Assembly: GCA_038087875.1 (NCBI GenBank)
Contig: CM075988.1
Coordinates: 744,001-808,000, forward strand
DNA from: Malacoraja senta
Taxonomy: Eukaryota
DNA: 64,000 bases
Reading direction: 5' to 3'
A model generated the notes under the pieces. The model was not told the DNA's origin. It ran no database searches and worked only from the letters and a program-made list of their open reading frames with translations. Every line of letters begins with the position of its first letter. Positions within the stretch are counted from its first letter, which is position 1. A program made the position numbers and the translations under genes. This document shows, piece after piece, positions 1 to 9,822 of the stretch.

Positions 1-2676
1 CACTCGGACCCAACATGTAGGGGAGAAAGAAGAAAAAGATATAAACAGATAATAAGTGGTGGTGGGTTTCTTAAATGTGTATATTTTAAAGCTAGGAGCA
101 TTGTAAGAAAGGTGGATGAGCTTAGAGCCTGGATTGACACCAGGAAGTATGATGTTGTGGCGATCAGTGAAACATGGTTGCAGGAGGGCTGTGATTGGAA
201 ACTAAATATTCGAGGATTTTGTTGCTTCAGGGGTGATAGAATTGGAGGGGCAAGAGGTGGGGGTGTTGCATTGCTTGTCAAGGAAGATATTACAGCAGTG
301 CTTTGGCAGGATAGACTAGAGAGCTCGTCTAGGGAGGCTATTTGGGTGGAACTGAGAAATGGGAAAGGCGTAGCAACACATAGGGGTGTATTATAGACCG
401 CCAAATGGGGAGCGAGAATTGGTAGAGCAGATATGTAAGGAGATAGCAGATGTTAGTAGTAAGCACAAGGTAGTGATTGTGGGAGATTTCAATTTTCCAA
501 ACATAGACTGGGAAACACATTCTGTAAAAGGGCTGGATGGTTTGGAGTTTGTAAAATGTGTGCAGGATAGTTTTTTGCAGCAAAGGGGCAGTGCTGGACC
601 TCCTGTTAGGAAATGAAACAGGTCAGGTGGCAGAGGTATGCGTCGGGGAGCACTTCGGGTCCAGTGATCACAATACCATTAGTTTCAATATAATTAGGGA
701 GAGGGTCAGAACTGGACCTAGGTTTGAGATTTTTGATTGGAGAAAGGCTAACTTTGAGGAGATGCGAAAGGATTTAAAATGAGTGAATTGGGACACGTTG
801 TTTTATGGGAAGGATGTAGAAGAGAAATGGAGGCCATTTAAGGGTGAAATTTTAAGAGTACAGAATCTTTATGTCCCTGTTCGGTTGAAAGGAAATAGTA
901 AAAATTGGAAAGAGCCATGGTTTTCAAGGGAAATTGGACACTTGGTTCGGAAAAAGAGAGAGATCTACAATTATTATAGGCAGCATGGAGTAAATGAGGT
1001 GCTTGAAGAGTATAAAGAATGTAAAAAGAATATTAAGAAAGAAATTAGAAAAGCTAAAAGAAGATATGAGGTTGCTTTGGCAAGTAAGGTGAAAGTAAAT
1101 CCAAAGGGTTTCTACAGCTATATTAATAGCAAAAGGATAACAAGGAATAAAATTGGTCCATTAGAGAGTCAGAGTGGACAGCTATCTGCAGAGCCAAAAG
1201 AGATGGGGGAGATATTGAACAATTTCTTTTCTTCGGTATTCAACAAGGAGAAGGATATGGAATTATGTGAGGTAAGGGAAACAAGCAGAGTAGCAATGGA
1301 AACTATGAGATTCAAAGAAGAGGAGGTGCGGACACTTTTGAAAAATATGAAAACGGATAAGTCTCCAGGTCCTGACAGGATATTCCCTAGGACATTGAGG
1401 GAAGTTAGTGTAGAAATAGCAGGGGCTATGACAGAAATATTTCAAATGTCATTAGAAACGGGAATAGTGCCGGAGGATTGGCGTACTGCGCTTGTTGTTC
1501 CGTTGTTTAAAAAGGGTTCTAAGAGTAAACCTAGCAATTATAGACCTGTTAGTTTGACGTCAGTGGTGGGCAAATTAATGGAAAGGATACTTAAAGCCTG
1601 GAAGGTCATGTTTGACTAATCTTCTTGAATTTTTCGAAGAGGTTAATAGGGAAATTGATGAGGGTAAGATTCAACTGTTGGGTATTAATGGTGGAGTAGC
1701 AAGATGGATTCAACAGTGGCTGAATGGGAGATGCCAGAGAGTAATGGTGGATGGCTGTTTGTCAGGTTGGAGGCCGGTGACTAGTGGGGTGCCTCAGGGG
1801 TCTGTGTTGGGTCCACTGTTGTTTGTCATGTACATCAATGAACTGGATGATGGTGTGGAAAATTGGATTAGTAAGTATGCAGATGATACTAAGATAGGTG
1901 ATGTTGTGGATAATGAAGTAGATTTTCAAAGTCTACAGAGAGATTTAGGCCATTTGGAAGAGTGGGCTGAAAGATGGCAGATGGAGTTTAATGCTGATAA
2001 ATGTGAGGTGCTACATCTCGGCAGGACAAATCAAAATAGGACGTACATGGTAAATGGTAGCGAATTGAGGAATGCAGTTGAACAGAGGGATCTAGGAATA
2101 ACTGTGCATAGTTCCCTGAAGGTGGAATCTCATGTAGATAGGGTGGTAAAGAAAGCTTTTGGTGTGCTGGCCTTTATAAATCAGAGCATTGAATATAGAA
2201 GTTGGGATGTAATGTTAAAATTGTACAAGGCATTGGTGAGGCCAATTCTGGAGTATGGAGTACAATTTTGGTCGCCTAATTATAGGAAGGATGTCAACAA
2301 AATAGAGAGCGTACAGAGGAGATTTACTAGAATGTTGCCTGGTTTCAGCAACTAAGTTACAGAGAAAGGTTGAACAAGTTAGGTCTTTATTCTTTGGAGC
2401 GCAGAAGGTTAAGAGGGGACTTGATAGAGGTCTTTAAAATTATGAGCGGGTTAGACAGAGTGGACGTGGATAAGCTTTTCCCATTGAGAGTAGGGAAGAT
2501 TCAAACAAGCGGACATGACTTGAGAATTAAGGGACAGAAGTTTAGGGGTAACATTAGGGGGAACTTCTTTACTCAGAGAGTGGTAGCTGTGTGGAATGAG
2601 CTTCCAGTGGAAGTGGTGGAGGCAGGTTCAATTTTATCCTTTAAAAATAGATTGGATGGGTACATGGACAGGAAAG
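1..2676 (+). mobile_element. CR1 LINE family A, ORF2 (APE endonuclease + RT), with internal deletions; interrupted at 2676
   Basis: ORF fragments carry [29 protein letters not shown] and YADD motifs. Near-identical to the copy at 49824-52718, which reveals deletions near 583, 1594 and 1667. Confidence 0.93.
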
Positions 2677-3024
2677 TCCTAACAGAGGTCCGAAAGCCGT
2701 TGGAGAGGTCGCTGAGGGAGGAGCTACAACCGAGCGGTAGGACTTAAAAAGGAGCGCGGGGGCTTGTTCCTAACAGAGGTCCGAAAGCCGTTGGAGAGGT
2801 CGCTGAGGGAGGAGCTACAACCAAGCGGTAGGACTTAAAAAGGAACCCAAATCGGCAACGTTCCACTTCAAAAACAAGTGGGTTTGAGGAAGCCGCTGAT
2901 TGGTGGACGCAGACAAGAGGGAGCAGCTGATTGGGAGTCAGATCCCTGCTGATTGTACTGTATTGTAGCAGTTTGTTTTGTATTGTAGCAGTTTGTTTTG
3001 TATTATATCCAGGGTAAGGGGAGT

Positions 3025-3960
3025 ATGAGGGACAGGGCAGTTTACTGTTCTGGATGTCAGATGTGGGAAGTCATGGAGTCTGATAGCCCCCCAGACGTCC
3101 ACATCTGCGCCAGGTGTATCGAGATGGGGCTCCTAATGGACCGTATTAGGAACCTGGAGCAGCAGCTCGATGACCTCCGTCTGGTCAGGGAGAGCGAGGA
3201 AGTCATTGAGAGGAGTTACAGGGATGTGGTCACTCCAACACCACAGGAGGCAGGCAAGTGGATCACGGTTGGGAGAGGCAAGGGGCACAGGCAGGGACTA
3301 GAGAGTACCCCGGTGGCTGTACACCTTGACAATAAGTACTCCTGTTTGAGCACTGTTGGGGTGGACAGCCTACCTGGGGGTAGCGACAGCGGCCGGGCCT
3401 CCGGTATAGAGACCGGCCCTGTTGCTCAGAAGGGTAAGGAAAAGAAGAGGAGGGCAATATTAATAGGGGACTCTATAGTTAGGGGGTCAGACAGGCGATT
3501 CTGTGGACGCAGTCGGGAGACCCGGATGGTAGTTTGCCTCCCTGGTGCCAGGGTCTGTGATGTGTCTCAACGTGTCCAAGACATCCTGAAAGGGCAGGGA
3601 GAGGAGCCCGAGGTCGTGATACATATAGGTACCAATGACATAGGTAAAAAAAGAGAAGAGGTCCTGAAAGGAGAATTTAGGGAGTTAGGAGGGGAGTTAA
3701 AGAGAAGGACAGCAAAGGTAACAATCTCGGGATTACTGCCTGTACCACGCGACAGTGAGAGTAGGAATGGAGCGAGGTGGAGGATAAATGCGTGGCTGAA
3801 GGACTGGTGCAGAAGGCAGGGATTCAAATTTCTGGATCATTGGGACCTCTTTTGTGGAAGGTTCGACCTGTACAAAAAGGATGGGTTGCACTTGAACCTG
3901 AGGGGGACCGATATCCTGGCGGGGAGATCTGCAAAGGCTACTGGGGAGACTTTAAACTAG
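3025..3960 (+). CDS. CR1 ORF1p: N-terminal CxxC..CxxC zinc finger, coiled coil, SGNH/GDSL-type esterase domain
   Basis: CSGC...HICARC; heptad stretch LMDRIRNLEQQLDDL; GDSIVR, HIGTND and DGLHLN esterase blocks. Open from ATG 3025 to TAG 3958-3960. Confidence 0.9.
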   Translation: MRDRAVYCSGCQMWEVMESDSPPDVHICARCIEMGLLMDRIRNLEQQLDDLRLVRESEEVIERSYRDVVTPTPQEAGKWITVGRGKGHRQGLESTPVAVHLDNKYSCLSTVGVDSLPGGSDSGRASGIETGPVAQKGKEKKRRAILIGDSIVRGSDRRFCGRSRETRMVVCLPGARVCDVSQRVQDILKGQGEEPEVVIHIGTNDIGKKREEVLKGEFRELGGELKRRTAKVTISGLLPVPRDSESRNGARWRINAWLKDWCRRQGFKFLDHWDLFCGRFDLYKKDGLHLNLRGTDILAGRSAKATGETLN

Positions 3961-6900
3961 AATGGTTGGGGGGAGGGACTCAAATAGAGAATGCTATTAG
4001 ACAGTGTGTGAGGCAGGAGGCAGAGAGGGAAAGCACTCAGACCCAACATGTAGGGGGGAAAGAAGAAAACAATAATAAACAGAGAATAAGAGGTGGTGGG
4101 GTTCTTAAATGGGTGAGCAGAGAAACAGAGGGGTGTAAAATGCGGGCGGAAGCAATAGGTAGCAAGGTGAAAGGTAAAAGTGGCAGGCAGACAAATCCAG
4201 GGCAAAAATCAAAAAGAGCCACTTTTCAACATAATTGTATAAGGGGTAAGAGCGTTGTAAAAACACGCCTGAAGGCTTTGTGTCTCAATGCAAGGAGCAT
4301 TCGTAATAAGGTGGATGAGTTGAACGTGCAGATAGCAATTAATGATTATGATATAGTTGGGATCACGGAGACATGGCTCCAAGGTGACCAAGGCTGGGAG
4401 CTGAACATCCAGGGATATTCAATATTCAGGAGGGATAGAGAGAAAGGAAAAGGAGGTGGGGTAGCGTTGCTGGTTAGAGAGGAGATTAACGCAGTGGAAA
4501 GGAAGGACATTAGCTTGGAGGATGTGGAATCGGTATGGGTAGAGCTGCGAAACACTAAGGGGCAGAAAACGCTGGTGGGTGTTGTGTACAGGCCACCTAG
4601 CAGTAGTAGTGAAGTTGGGGATGGCATCAAACAGGAAATTAGAAATGCGTGCAACAAAGGCAAAACAGTTATATTGGGTGACTTCAATCTACATATAGAT
4701 TGGGTGAATCAAATTGGCAGGGGTGCTGAGGAAGAGGATTTCTTGGAATGTATGAGGGATAGTTATCTAAACCAACATGTAGAGGAACCAACGAGAGAGC
4801 TGGCTATTCTAGACTGGGTATTGAGTAATGAGGAAGGGTTAGTTAGCAGACTTGTTGTGCGTGCCCCCTTGGGCAAGAGTGATCATAATATGGTTGAGTT
4901 CTTCATTAGGATGGAGAGTGACATTGTTAATTCAGAAACAATGGTTCTGAACTTAAAGAAAGGTAACTTTGAGGGTATGAGACGTGAATTGGCCAAGATT
5001 GACTGGCAATTAGTTCTAAAAGGGTTGACGGTGGATATGCAATGGAAGGCATTTAAAGACTGCATGGATGAACTACAAAAATTGTTCATCCCAGTTTGGC
5101 AAAAGAATAAATCAAGGAAGGTAGTGCATCCGTGGATAACAAGGGAAATCAGGGATAGTATCAAAGCAAAAGATGATGCGTACAAATTAGCCAGAAAAAG
5201 CAGCATACCAGAGGACTGGGAGAAATTCAGAGAACAGCAGAGGAGGACAAAGGGCTTAATTAGGAAAGGGAAAATAGATTATGAAAGGAAACTGGCAGGG
5301 AACATAAAAACTGACTGCAAAAGTTTTTATAGATATGTGAAGAGAAAGAGATTAGTTAAATCAAATGTAGGTCCCTTGCAGTCAGAAACAGGTGAATTGA
5401 TCATGGGGAACAAGGATATGGCAGACCAATTGAATAACTACTTTGGTTCCGTCTTCACTAAGGAAGACATAAATAATCTGCCGGAAATAGCAGGGGGTCG
5501 CGGGTCAAAGGAGATGGAGGAACTGAGTGAAATCCAGGTTAGTCGGGAAGTGGTGTTGGGTAAATTGAATGGATTAAAGGCCGATAAATCACCAGGGCCA
5601 GATAGGCTGCATCCCAGAGTACTTAAGGAAGTAGCTCCAGAAATAGTGGATGCATTAGTGATAATTTTTCAAAACTCTTTAGATTCTGGAGTAGTTCCTG
5701 AGGATTGGAGGGTAGCAAACGTAACCCCACTTTTTAAGAAGGGAGGGAGAGAGAAAACGGGGAATTACAGACCAGTTAGTCTAACATCGGTAGTGGGGAA
5801 ACTGCTAGAGTCAGTTATTAAAGATGGGATAGCAGCACATTTGGAAAGTGGTGAAATCATTGGACAAAGTCAGCATGGATTTACGAAAGGTAAATCGTGT
5901 CTGACGAATCTTATAGAATTTTTCGAGGATGTAACTAGTAGAGTGGATAGGGGAGAACCAGTGGATGTGTTGTATCTGGACTTTCAGAAGGCTTTCGACA
6001 AGGTACCACATAAGAGATTAGGATACAAACTTAAATCACACGGTATTGGGGGTTCAGTATTGATGTGGATAGAGAACTGGCTGGCAAACAGGAAGCAAAG
6101 AGTAGGAGTAAACGGGTCCTTTTCACAATGGCAGGCAGTGACTAGTGGGGTACCGCAAGGCTCAGTGCTGGGACCCCAGCTATTTACAATTTATATTAAT
6201 GATCTGGACGAGGGAATTGAAAGCAACATCTCCAAGTTTGCGGATGACACTAAGCTGGGGGGCAGTGTTAGCTGTGAGGAGGATGCTAGGAGACTGCAAG
6301 GTGACTTGGATAGGTTGGGTGAGTGGGCAAATGTTTGGCAGATGCAGTATAATGTGGATAAATGTGAGGTTATCCACTTTGGTAGCAAAAACGGGAAGGC
6401 AGACTATTATCTAAATGGTGGCCGATTAGGAAATGGGGAGATGCAGCGAGACCTGGGTGTCATGGTACACCAGTCATTGAAAGTAGGCATGCAGGTGCAG
6501 CAGGCAGTGAAGAAAGCGAATGGTATGTTGGCCTTCATAGCAAGAGGATTTGAGTATAGGAGCAGGGAGGTTCTACTGCAGTTGTACAGGGTCTTGGTGA
6601 GACCACACCTGGAGTATTGCGTATAGTTTTGGTCTCCAAATCTGAGGAAGGACATTATAGCCATAGAGGGAGTGCAGAGAAGGTTCACCAGACTGATTCC
6701 TGGGATGTCAGGACTTTCATATGAAGAAAGACTGGATAGACTTGGCTTATACTCGCTAGAATTTAGGAGATTGAGAGGGGATCTTATAGAAACGTACAAA
6801 ATTCTTATGGGGTTGGACAGGCTAGATGCAGGAAGATTGTTCCCGATGTTGGGGAAGTCCAGGACAAGGGGTCACAGCTTAAGGATAAGGGGGAAATCCT

Positions 6901-7076
6901 TTAAGACCGAGATGAGGAAAAACTTTTTCACACAGAGAGTGGTGAATCTCTGGAACTCTCTGCCACAGAGGGTAGTTGAGGCCAGTTCATTGGCTATATT
7001 TAAGAGGGAATTAGATGTGGCCCTTGTGGCTAAAGGGGTCAGGGGGTATGGAGAGAAGGCAGGTACGGGATACTGA
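3951..7076 (+). pseudogene. CR1 ORF2p (APE endonuclease + reverse transcriptase), interrupted by a single nonsense codon
   Basis: ORFs 3777-6626 and 6672-7076 share one frame. TAG at 6624-6626 is CAG in a sister copy (gtacagttttgg near 54863). LNARS, ETWL, GDFN, QHGF, QGSVLGP and FADD motifs are present. Confidence 0.92.
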
Positions 7077-7178
7077 GTTGGATGATCAGCCATGATCGTA
7101 TTGAATGGCGGTGCAGGCTCGAAGGGCCGAATGGCCTACTCCTGCACCTATTTTCTATGTATCTATGTATCTATGTAT

Positions 7179-7291
7179 AAAGGAATGGATGGGTTATGGT
7201 CTGAGTGCAGGTAGATGGGACTAGGGGGAAGTTTTTTAAAAAAGGTGTTCGGCACGGACTTGAAGGGCCGAGGTGGCCTGTTTCCGTGCTG
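7179..7291 (+). mobile_element. 3' end of the family A CR1 that starts at position 1 (resumes after the nested insertion)
   Basis: aaaggaatggatgggttatggtctg... continues where 2676 stopped (compare 52563 onward) and ends in a (TTATATGG)n-like tail. Confidence 0.9.
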
Positions 7292-7869: not shown

Positions 7870-9822
7870 GCAAAGAGAAGCAGGAAAAAGCATTGATTGG
7901 CTCTAGATCGAGTGGGAGGACAGTTAGAAGTTTGTCATTTGGGGAAAACAGTTTAAAACTGAGGAGTTTGGTTGTAAATTGGTAAATTAGGCAATTTATC
8001 AGTCAATATAAGCAAGACGGCTCTTAGGGAGTGGCAGTGAGGGAAGTGCCTTGTGAGGGAAGTGCGAGTCTTGGGCGAGGAGGCTGAGGGGAGGAGACTA
8101 CGCAAATCGCTGGAGAGGGAGTGACGAAAGAAGGAGATATCAGGCAAGCTGATTCAGTGTGATGCTTGCAGTATGTGGGAGGTCAAGGACACCGCTGGTG
8201 CCTCTGGCTGCTACAAGTGTGAGAAGTGCATCCAGGTACAGCTCCTGAAGGACCGTGTTGGGGAACTGGAGAAGCAAGTGACCTCAGGTTTGTCCGAGAG
8301 GCTGAGTCGTTCCACGACGAGTCCTACAGCAAGATTGTTACACCTAAGGTACTGGAAGGGGGACGGTGGGTGACAGTGAGAAAGGGAAGTAAACATGGAA
8401 TGCACAGGTCCCCGGGTGTTGTACCTCTTGTGAACAGGTTCACCCACTTAAAAGCTGTCGGGACAGAAGACGTTATCACACTGAGCGGTGGACTGGCTTG
8501 CGATGCAAAAAGTGCTGTTGAGCCAAAACCAAAGAGGCCAACGTCAGGCAACGCAGTGGTGGTTGGAGACTCCATTGTGAGAGGTACGGACAGGGGTTTC
8601 TGCGGCAACAGACGGGATTCGAGGATGGTGTGCTGCCTCCCTGGTGCCAGGCTCCAGGATGTCACGGACAGAGTGCAGAAAATCCTCAAGGGCGAAGGTG
8701 AACAGCCGGAAGTTGTAGTGCATGTTGGCACAAACGATGTCGGAAAGAAGGGGATGAATATTCTGAAGCGTGACTTTAGAGAGCTCGGAAAAATGCTGAA
8801 ATGCAGGACCTCCAGGGTGGATATCTCCGGTTTGCTTCCAGTTCCTCGTGCTGGCGAGAGCAGGAACAGGGAGATACAGGATCTGAATGTGTGGCTGAGG
8901 AACTGGTGCAGGGGGCTGAGATTTAGATTCTTAGACCACTGGGATATATTTTGGAGTAAGGGGGAACTGTACAAAAGGGACGGATTGCACCTTAACAGGT
9001 GGGGGGCCGGCATTCTGGCAGTGCGACACAGGTGGTTTTAAACTGAATAAGGGGGGTTGTCAAATGGGATAGTCAAGGACGGAGTTAAAGGGAAAGGGAG
9101 TAAAGGGATAGTTAATGACCCCAGAATTAACGGGAAAGAAAGCTCACAAAGGGATAGGAGAATATGGCCAAGTGTAGTAGGGATCGATGTGAATGGTGAG
9201 ATGCGTAAGGAATTAAAAGTACTGTATTTGAATGCGCGAAGTATAAGAAGTAAAGTAGATGAGCTTGAGGCTCAGTTAGAGGTTGGTAGATATGACATTG
9301 TGGGGATTACTGAGACGTGGCTGCAGGAGGATCGGGCCTGGGAACTTAATATTCAGGGTTATACATCCTATAGAAAGGACAGGCAGGTGGGCAGAGGAGG
9401 GGGGGGGTAGCTCTGCTGGTGAGGAATTGAATTCAGTCCCTTGCGAGGGAAGACATAGGGACTGACGAGGTCACTGTGGATTGAGTTGAGGAATTGCAAA
9501 GGAAAGAGGACACTAATTGGTGTTATCTACAGACCCCCAAATAGTAGCCCGGATGTAGGGTGTAAGTTGCAGCAGGAGTTAAAACTGGCATGTAACAAAG
9601 GTAATGCCACTGTGGTGATGGGGGATTTCAATATGCAGGTAGACTGGGAAAATCAGGTTGGTTCAGGACCCCAAGAAAGAGAGTTTGTAGAATGCCTCCG
9701 AGATGGATTTTTAGAGCAGCTTGTAATGGAGCCGACCAGAGAAAAGGCAATTCTAGATTTAGTGTTGTCCAATGAACCAAATTTGACAAGAGAACTCGAG
9801 GTAAAGGAACCGCTTGGAGTTA
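7870..9822 (+). mobile_element. CR1 family C, 5' half (5' UTR, frameshifted esterase ORF1, start of ORF2 endonuclease); 3' part lost
   Basis: CDAC..CEKC zinc finger, GDSIVR/HVGTND/DGLHLN, then YLNARSI, ETWL, YRPPN and GDFN in successive frames. Confidence 0.88.

Follow-up and report, generated by a model that had tools for sequence, protein, structure and literature searches.

A near full-length long interspersed nuclear element (LINE) occupies positions 3025-7179 of the analyzed window, a stretch of 64,000 nucleotides (nt) of Malacoraja senta DNA (contig CM075988.1, positions 744,001 to 808,000). It consists of a first open reading frame (ORF1) followed by an endonuclease and a reverse transcriptase (RT) encoded in a different frame (Table 1). 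The ORF1 protein contains an esterase of the SGNH/GDSL type (PF13472, E 3e-14), and ORF2 carries an apurinic/apyrimidinic endonuclease (APE; PF03372) followed by the reverse transcriptase (PF00078), which is the domain order of an esterase-type CR1 element. We take the element to be a CR1 on account of this architecture and its short 3' tandem repeats, not of an RT tree. The nearest named ORF1 proteins come from skates and rays, with 84% identity to that of Leucoraja erinacea. A second, decayed CR1 spans approximately 8.2-9.8 kb, and its ORF1 is 62% identical over 154 residues to that of the first element.

Table 1. Features of the CR1 element and of the decayed second element, in window positions
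Feature	Position	Strand	Remarks
CR1 ORF1, 311 residues	3025..3960	+	ATG 3025; N-terminal Cys motif and SGNH/GDSL esterase; C-terminus G-E-T-L-N-stop
Slippery heptamer T_TTA_AAC	3951..3957	+	Final two ORF1 codons plus the preceding wobble base
ORF1 stop codon TAG	3958..3960	+	Abuts the heptamer; TAA or TGA in other families; -1 frame reads CTA/CTG (Leu)
G-rich tract GGTTGGGGGGAGGG	3964..3977	+	G6 run at 3968, 11 nt past the heptamer; candidate stimulator
-1 frame linker, 106 codons, stop-free	3951..4268	+	Other two frames have 9 stops each
Remnant of the parent family's endonuclease start	4101..4112	+	Recombination site behind the chimeric family
First ORF2-frame ATG	4140..4142	+	Preceded, after the ORF1 stop, by four out-of-frame ATGs (3962, 3991, 4048, 4109)
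ORF2 body, APE-type endonuclease and reverse transcriptase	4269..7076	+	Broken by TAG 6624-6626 in this copy
Element 3' end, short tandem 8-nt repeats	7140..7179	+	Sequence
Second, decayed CR1 of another family: TTTAAAC TGA and G run	9037..9046	+	At the equivalent place

The first-pass annotation of this DNA had proposed that ORF1 and ORF2 are joined by a programmed -1 ribosomal frameshift, and its description of the junction proved to be accurate: ORF1 ends ACT TTA AAC TAG, with TTTAAAC phased as T_TTA_AAC and abutting the stop codon, and a G-rich tract follows. The -1 frame is indeed the ORF2 frame. It is open from position 3765 and covers both Pfam domains, but it does not extend to the end of ORF2, because a TAG interrupts the C-terminal part in this copy. 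The endonuclease had been placed too far upstream, at about 4105; that of the window copy begins at 4269 (LKALCLNARS). The earlier position nevertheless matches a real remnant, because the endonuclease of family A0, the parent of the window family A1, begins at the homologous place.

The heptamer is conserved beyond the need of the encoded protein and is a deeply conserved, real signal. TTTAAAC alone is common, with 22 matches on the two strands of the window. Junctions were located genome-wide by means of a degenerate pattern for the ORF1 motif DGLHLN, which served as an anchor and gave 10,209 matches (130 with the reversed-pattern control). TTTAAAC-TRR lies exactly 53 nt after this motif in 7,802 genomic copies and in none of the reversed control. 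These exact heptamers make up 7,802 of the 8,090 anchored ORF1 ends that match N-YTN-AAY-TRR (Leu/Phe-Asn-stop). At the same spacing, T-YTN-AAY-TRR is found 7,974 times and another first base 116 times; among the 100 of these 116 that were listed, the variants are single-base changes spread across families. In the first 30 anchored loci the heptamer is in place in 21 and shifted in two, and the other seven differ otherwise. The fixed position of the heptamer after DGLHLN, in 7,802 copies and in divergent lineages, exceeds chance. Synonymous variation of the Leu and Asn codons across families, a check suggested in the first-pass annotation, was not found as the state of any family.

The same ending is obtained when the heptamer plays no part in the selection. 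ORF1 ends located with a hidden Markov model, which did not require the heptamer, read TTTAAAC-stop in 20 of 20 loci of family C and in 16 of 20 loci of family B. Among 34 loci from metagenome and prokaryote assemblies, TTTAAAC TAG is present in five that we liken to bird CR1, which are all such loci with an intact end; one broken locus has TTTAAAC TAG slightly downstream, and locus L071 reads GTTAAAC TAG. A junction is therefore present in seven of the 34, and the remaining 27 are truncated or are distant esterases without a junction. The ORF1 proteins compared in this way have diverged considerably, with identities of 40-72% among families A-F of the same genome, 26-36% to the bird-type loci and 25-44% to L071. 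Other conserved positions of ORF1 behave differently at the nucleotide level: TTA is used in only 2 of 50 codons of four other conserved Leu columns within the last 40 codons, and conserved Asp, Gly and Ala columns near the ORF1 end vary at the third base. The base preceding TTA is T in 14 of 15 representatives (three of the 15 were chosen after their heptamer had been seen), and the codon to which it belongs encodes Ala, Gly, Val, Ser, Thr or Cys. A stop codon (TAG, TAA or TGA) directly after AAC is constant across lineages.

The ORF2 frame maintains a constant relation to the heptamer. The modal distance from the heptamer to the first Asn of the endonuclease is 336 nt in family A1, 171 in A0, 252 in B2, 198 in B1, 201 in C and 204 or 195 in D. 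All of these are multiples of 3, as is the case in every family with enough intact copies; ORF2 in another frame, which had also been proposed as a check, is the modal state of none of them. The first 30 loci, which are unselected, are in the -1 phase in 22 of 24 scorable copies and open in 21. In the families where an open linker is the majority state, the probability of such a linker upon shuffling is 0.003 (A1), 0.03 (C) and 0.05 (A0); the representatives of the other families had been picked for being open, and the test did not reach two representatives. In families C, D, F and G, in the bird-type loci and in L071, a stop codon lies in the -1 frame only 1-5 codons upstream of the heptamer, and the upstream part of this frame contains an ATG in only 1 of 16 representatives. 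For these reasons ORF2 cannot start further up within ORF1.

Family A0, which has 1,725 genomic matches, bears on the start of ORF2. Of its first 20 copies, 19 are in phase and open, and none of the 20 encodes a Met between the heptamer and the endonuclease Asn, a span of 57 codons. Four copies are open across 500 codons, and their first Met lies 211 codons beyond this Asn; in other copies it occurs earlier, at scattered places. As the A0 linker contains no Met, an A0 ORF2 protein (ORF2p) started at an AUG would be expected to lack the endonuclease. Several copies of family D also have no in-frame AUG ahead of the first strand of the endonuclease. The earlier statement that no AUG precedes the endonuclease thus holds for the parent family, but not for the window copy, whose ATG 4140 is kept in most of the family copies shown. 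ORF2 has no start codon of its own in A0 and some D copies, and an in-frame ATG is available to it in the window family and most others.

All 15 representatives and 22 of 24 unselected copies have a run of at least five G residues that starts 8 to 11 nt past the heptamer; the background further downstream is 0.8% per 4-nt window. The codon phase of the run and the residues it encodes differ among lineages, and GGG accounts for 26 of 38 Gly codons at the run versus 93 of 279 downstream. Because of this variation and the preference for GGG, the G run looks like an RNA signal. Its best duplex partners are often located 200-235 nt upstream, in a C-rich stretch of Pro codons.

Judged from these sequence features, esterase-type CR1 elements probably employ a programmed -1 frameshift at U_UUA_AAC and its adjacent stop codon, giving an ORF1-ORF2 fusion. 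The process could be described as follows. Ribosomes would translate ORF1, and most of them would terminate at its stop codon and release the ORF1 protein (ORF1p). A minority would slip by -1 on U_UUA_AAC, the Leu-tRNA moving from UUA to UUU and the Asn-tRNA from AAC to AAA. The heptamer is among the most shift-prone on mammalian ribosomes, according to the relevant part of a 2016 review of frameshifting (PMC5009743). The pause is likely to be caused by the adjacent stop codon and/or by the G run at the mRNA entry channel, either bound by a protein or folded into a G-quadruplex, rather than by a classic pseudoknot. The slipped ribosomes would then read through the variable linker into the endonuclease and the reverse transcriptase, producing an ORF1p-linker-endonuclease-RT fusion, and the frequency of slippage would set a low ORF2p:ORF1p ratio in the manner of gag-pol. 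CR1 encodes no protease recognized by Pfam, so the fusion would stay joined through the linker of 33-106 codons. A weak search of longer proteins for families with a single fused ORF returned 10 matches, none of which is a vertebrate CR1 fusion.

Several results weigh against the frameshift interpretation. No conserved hairpin or pseudoknot was found in the 45, 70 and 110 nt downstream of the heptamer in the 15 representatives (z-scores of -2.0 to +1.8; pseudoknots were not explicitly modeled), and a stable first stem 5-9 nt downstream, the hallmark of classical structure-stimulated sites, was not seen in them either. G-quadruplexes are predicted only in some lineages and are mostly two-tier. 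The -1 phase is less regular in the older sets, where it is found in 6 of 13 scorable copies among the top matches of B, 4 of 8 of the rare-family set, and 6 of 8 and 6 of 10 of the D-type sets. Of the 10,209 anchored matches, 2,119 differ at the standard spacing. Genomic copies are not independent events, which is the reason why lineages were compared, and the occurrence of TTA and AAC in 15 of 15 representatives is by construction, as the script required both. An in-frame AUG precedes the endonuclease in families A1 (including the window copy), B1, B2, C, E and G, in some D copies, in the bird-type loci and in L071. Finally, ORF2 of LINE-1 is thought to be translated by AUG-independent initiation rather than by recoding, as stated in the portion of the frameshifting review that deals with it (PMC5009743).

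The last point leads to an explanation in which the ribosome terminates at the ORF1 stop codon, stays on the RNA and restarts, without an AUG, in the -1 frame, either at that codon or immediately past it. The conserved letters and the G run would then mark the restart, and ORF2p would be made as a protein of its own. Such termination-coupled reinitiation has precedents in LINE-1 (PMC5009743) and SART1 (PMC3708506), as far as the passages on them go, and it accounts equally well for the adjacent stop codon, for a linker that is open and in phase, and for the family without an AUG. It leaves unexplained why the letters form an in-phase X_XXY_YYZ heptamer, why a G_UUA_AAC variant exists and why the ends of distant relatives fit G_GGA_AAC or A_AAA_AAC. 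Moreover, no near-cognate start codon near the stop is common to the seven families compared, and UGGGA, the calicivirus-type reinitiation motif, is not conserved within 150 nt upstream of the junction. The set of features typical of SART1 and caliciviruses (a stop-start overlap, a nearby conserved AUG and an upstream UGGGA) was looked for and was not found. Termination-coupled reinitiation is the main rival of frameshifting, but is considered unlikely. Still less probable is a start of ORF2 at a downstream AUG (4140 in the window family), reached by scanning reinitiation or by internal entry, which would make the linker untranslated and the heptamer a relic or an element with another role. 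Most families do have an in-frame AUG ahead of the endonuclease, and ATG 4140, which has an A at -3, is retained by copies of A1 and B2. These AUGs occupy non-homologous places in different families, however, while A0 and the D copies mentioned above have none; four out-of-frame AUGs precede the one at 4140; and an untranslated spacer would not be expected to hold its phase and stay open to the degree measured by shuffling. A downstream AUG could still serve as a side route in the families that possess one.

It is also conceivable that the letters are fixed for a reason that has nothing to do with the translation of ORF2 from the same message, either because ORF1p needs a C-terminal Leu-Asn or because they are a splice or RNA-processing signal for a separate ORF2 message. 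The Leu-Asn ending is invariant in 33 of 33 aligned ORF1 proteins, all of which were chosen for intact ends. A requirement of the protein would leave the choice of TTA and AAC, and of the wobble base before them, unconstrained, and nine L2-like esterases lack the Leu-Asn ending altogether. As for splicing, there is no conserved AG acceptor, because the stop codon is TAA or TGA in many families, and no joint across the junction was found in the contigs of four runs, a weak result given that only contigs were searched and that their RNA status was guessed. This explanation appears to be the most improbable of those considered, and frameshifting at the heptamer is preferred.

The junction has kept its phase through recombination. 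Window family A1 is chimeric: the 5' part of A0 is joined to a different ORF2 just after the start of the A0 endonuclease. Family B2 combines the ORF2 of A1 with another ORF1, the two being joined at the very same short stretch of shared sequence, and both recombinant families have retained the -1 phase. The breakpoint region corresponds to window positions 4101-4140 and is also represented by loci L134, L122 and L049. Exchange of ORF1 and ORF2 modules is taking place within the linker. A further chimeric copy, L225 (minus strand), has a second TTTAAAC-stop-G-run in the linker about 75 nt after the first heptamer; this second junction is apparently that of the ORF2 donor.

Esterase ORF1 proteins of more distant elements were compared at the protein level. 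The best 150 representatives of a profile search included 96 with a recognizable tail, of which 46 end in L-N and 10 in G-N, the profile itself favoring a final Asn. After the removal of identical tails, Gln precedes 9 of 10 G-N ends, and a Gln codon can end in G. In one protein group K-N takes this place, equally far from the DGLH motif. In a tree of the esterase domain, made by a quick method with the tail excluded, the final tripeptide, or the one before it, could be encoded across an in-phase heptamer in 28 of 31 proteins of the vertebrate-like clade, in 29 of 58 of a distant clade (L-N, G-N, K-N, F-F, G-F) and in none of the nine of the L2-like clade; the expected rate is about 1.2% per position, and related rows in these counts are not independent. 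The distant endings Q-G-N, S-K-N or G-F-x would fit other classic slippery heptamers. U_UUA_AAC, G_GGA_AAC, A_AAA_AAC and G_GGU_UUU, the four named as most shift-prone in the section of the review that ranks them (PMC5009743), would encode L-N, G-N, K-N and G-F, respectively. DNA of the distant G-N and K-N lineages was not found in viral contigs, plasmids or phages, and their ends are known from protein alone.

These endings permit a broader and much more tentative proposal, which has perhaps one chance in three of being correct. An ancient branch of animal LINEs, comprising vertebrate CR1 and its distant esterase relatives, may produce its reverse transcriptase fused to ORF1p, in the manner of Gag-Pol, through -1 frameshifting on heptamers that are interchangeable (U_UUA_AAC, G_UUA_AAC, G_GGA_AAC, A_AAA_AAC and G_GGU_UUY), driven by an adjacent stop codon and a G run rather than by a pseudoknot. 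If so, the G run, bound by a protein or as a quadruplex, would be a natural stimulator of frameshifting; no natural case of a G-quadruplex stimulator was known according to the corresponding passage of the 2016 review (PMC5009743).

Some individual junctions deviate from the common form. Locus L071 (positions 680-3650) has an intact CR1-like ORF2 behind its G_TTA_AAC TAG junction, and in the esterase tree its lineage does not fall within the vertebrate-like clade. A cluster of A0-type copies, nearly identical to one another and likewise carrying G_TTA_AAC, is located on small contigs of genome G000 (C71, C627, C1143, C2317, C2707, C3387, C3674 and C4345; loci L179-L182), and represents either a small subfamily with an arterivirus-type heptamer or a segmental duplication. 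Loci L235 (G000:C2:7014000-7019500) and L050, both single copies, have one extra A in the heptamer, by which ORF1 reads into ORF2 in frame; the open frame of L235 has 1,324 residues.

The surroundings of the window element have some features of their own. Its 5' end (2679-2860) contains a tandem duplication of about 91 nt, with copies at 2679 and 2770, and the element sits inside the 3' part of another CR1 (783-2680). Three CR1/L2-type ORF1 proteins (P0022, P0068 and P0090) are labeled bacterial, flatworm or microsporidian in public databases, which is probably due to contamination by host DNA.

If the proposed frameshift is real, CR1 reverse transcriptase would be made fused to an esterase, and as the CR1-type ORF1 esterase is described as membrane-binding in the excerpted account of it (PMC3905857), the analogy with Gag would become literal. 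The fusion would explain the delivery of ORF2p in cis, CR1 ORF2 starts would prove to be mis-annotated, and a short chromosomal frameshift signal with an unusual stimulator would be at hand for direct testing. CR1-group elements are the dominant retrotransposons in most vertebrates, according to the sections consulted of a 2026 survey (PMC13343379), and the mechanism by which LINE ORF2 is translated is described as unclear in the paper cited above for SART1 (PMC3708506). No report of frameshifting in CR1 was found in the literature searched, a search with early primary CR1 papers, Repbase reports and supplements outside its scope. The words 'frameshift', 'overlap' and 'start codon' do not occur in the available text of the 2026 survey (PMC13343379), ribosomal frameshifting is not mentioned in the available part of the chicken CR1 paper, and CR1 does not occur in the part of the 2016 frameshifting review that was covered (PMC5009743).

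The window element resembles the type IV canonical CR1 of vertebrates (PMC4120745, PMC13343379) in its esterase ORF1, in the APE endonuclease and reverse transcriptase of ORF2, and in its short tandem 3' repeats; the passages on type IV elements, unlike the present analysis, describe no mechanism of translation. Among other LINEs, the Dictyostelium elements TRE5-A and TRE3-A are said, in a review figure legend, to require a -1 frameshift for ORF2 (PMC5911963), which gives the idea a precedent among LINEs. TRE5-A and TRE3-A share with CR1 the APE-type non-long terminal repeat organization and the -1 ORF2, but belong to another clade and another host, and the legend names no slippery sequence, experiment or esterase ORF1 (PMC5911963). 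LINE-1 and SART1, in the passages cited above, have like CR1 a bicistronic RNA and a low output of ORF2; LINE-1, with its spacer, is proposed to reinitiate, and SART1 has a UAAUG stop-start, whereas CR1 lacks both a conserved AUG and a stop-start overlap. The viral systems differ from CR1, which has no pseudoknot or stable hairpin, has an adjacent stop codon and a G run instead, and encodes no protease to cut the fusion. The organization is nevertheless that of retroviral gag-pol, with a structural gene upstream and the polymerase in the -1 frame (PMC5009743, in the parts on these viruses, as for the next two cases). The G_UUA_AAC of equine arteritis virus is the heptamer type of L071, and the U_UUA_AAC of the coronavirus infectious bronchitis virus (IBV) is the CR1 heptamer itself, in the same phase and likewise with a structural gene upstream and the polymerase in the -1 frame.

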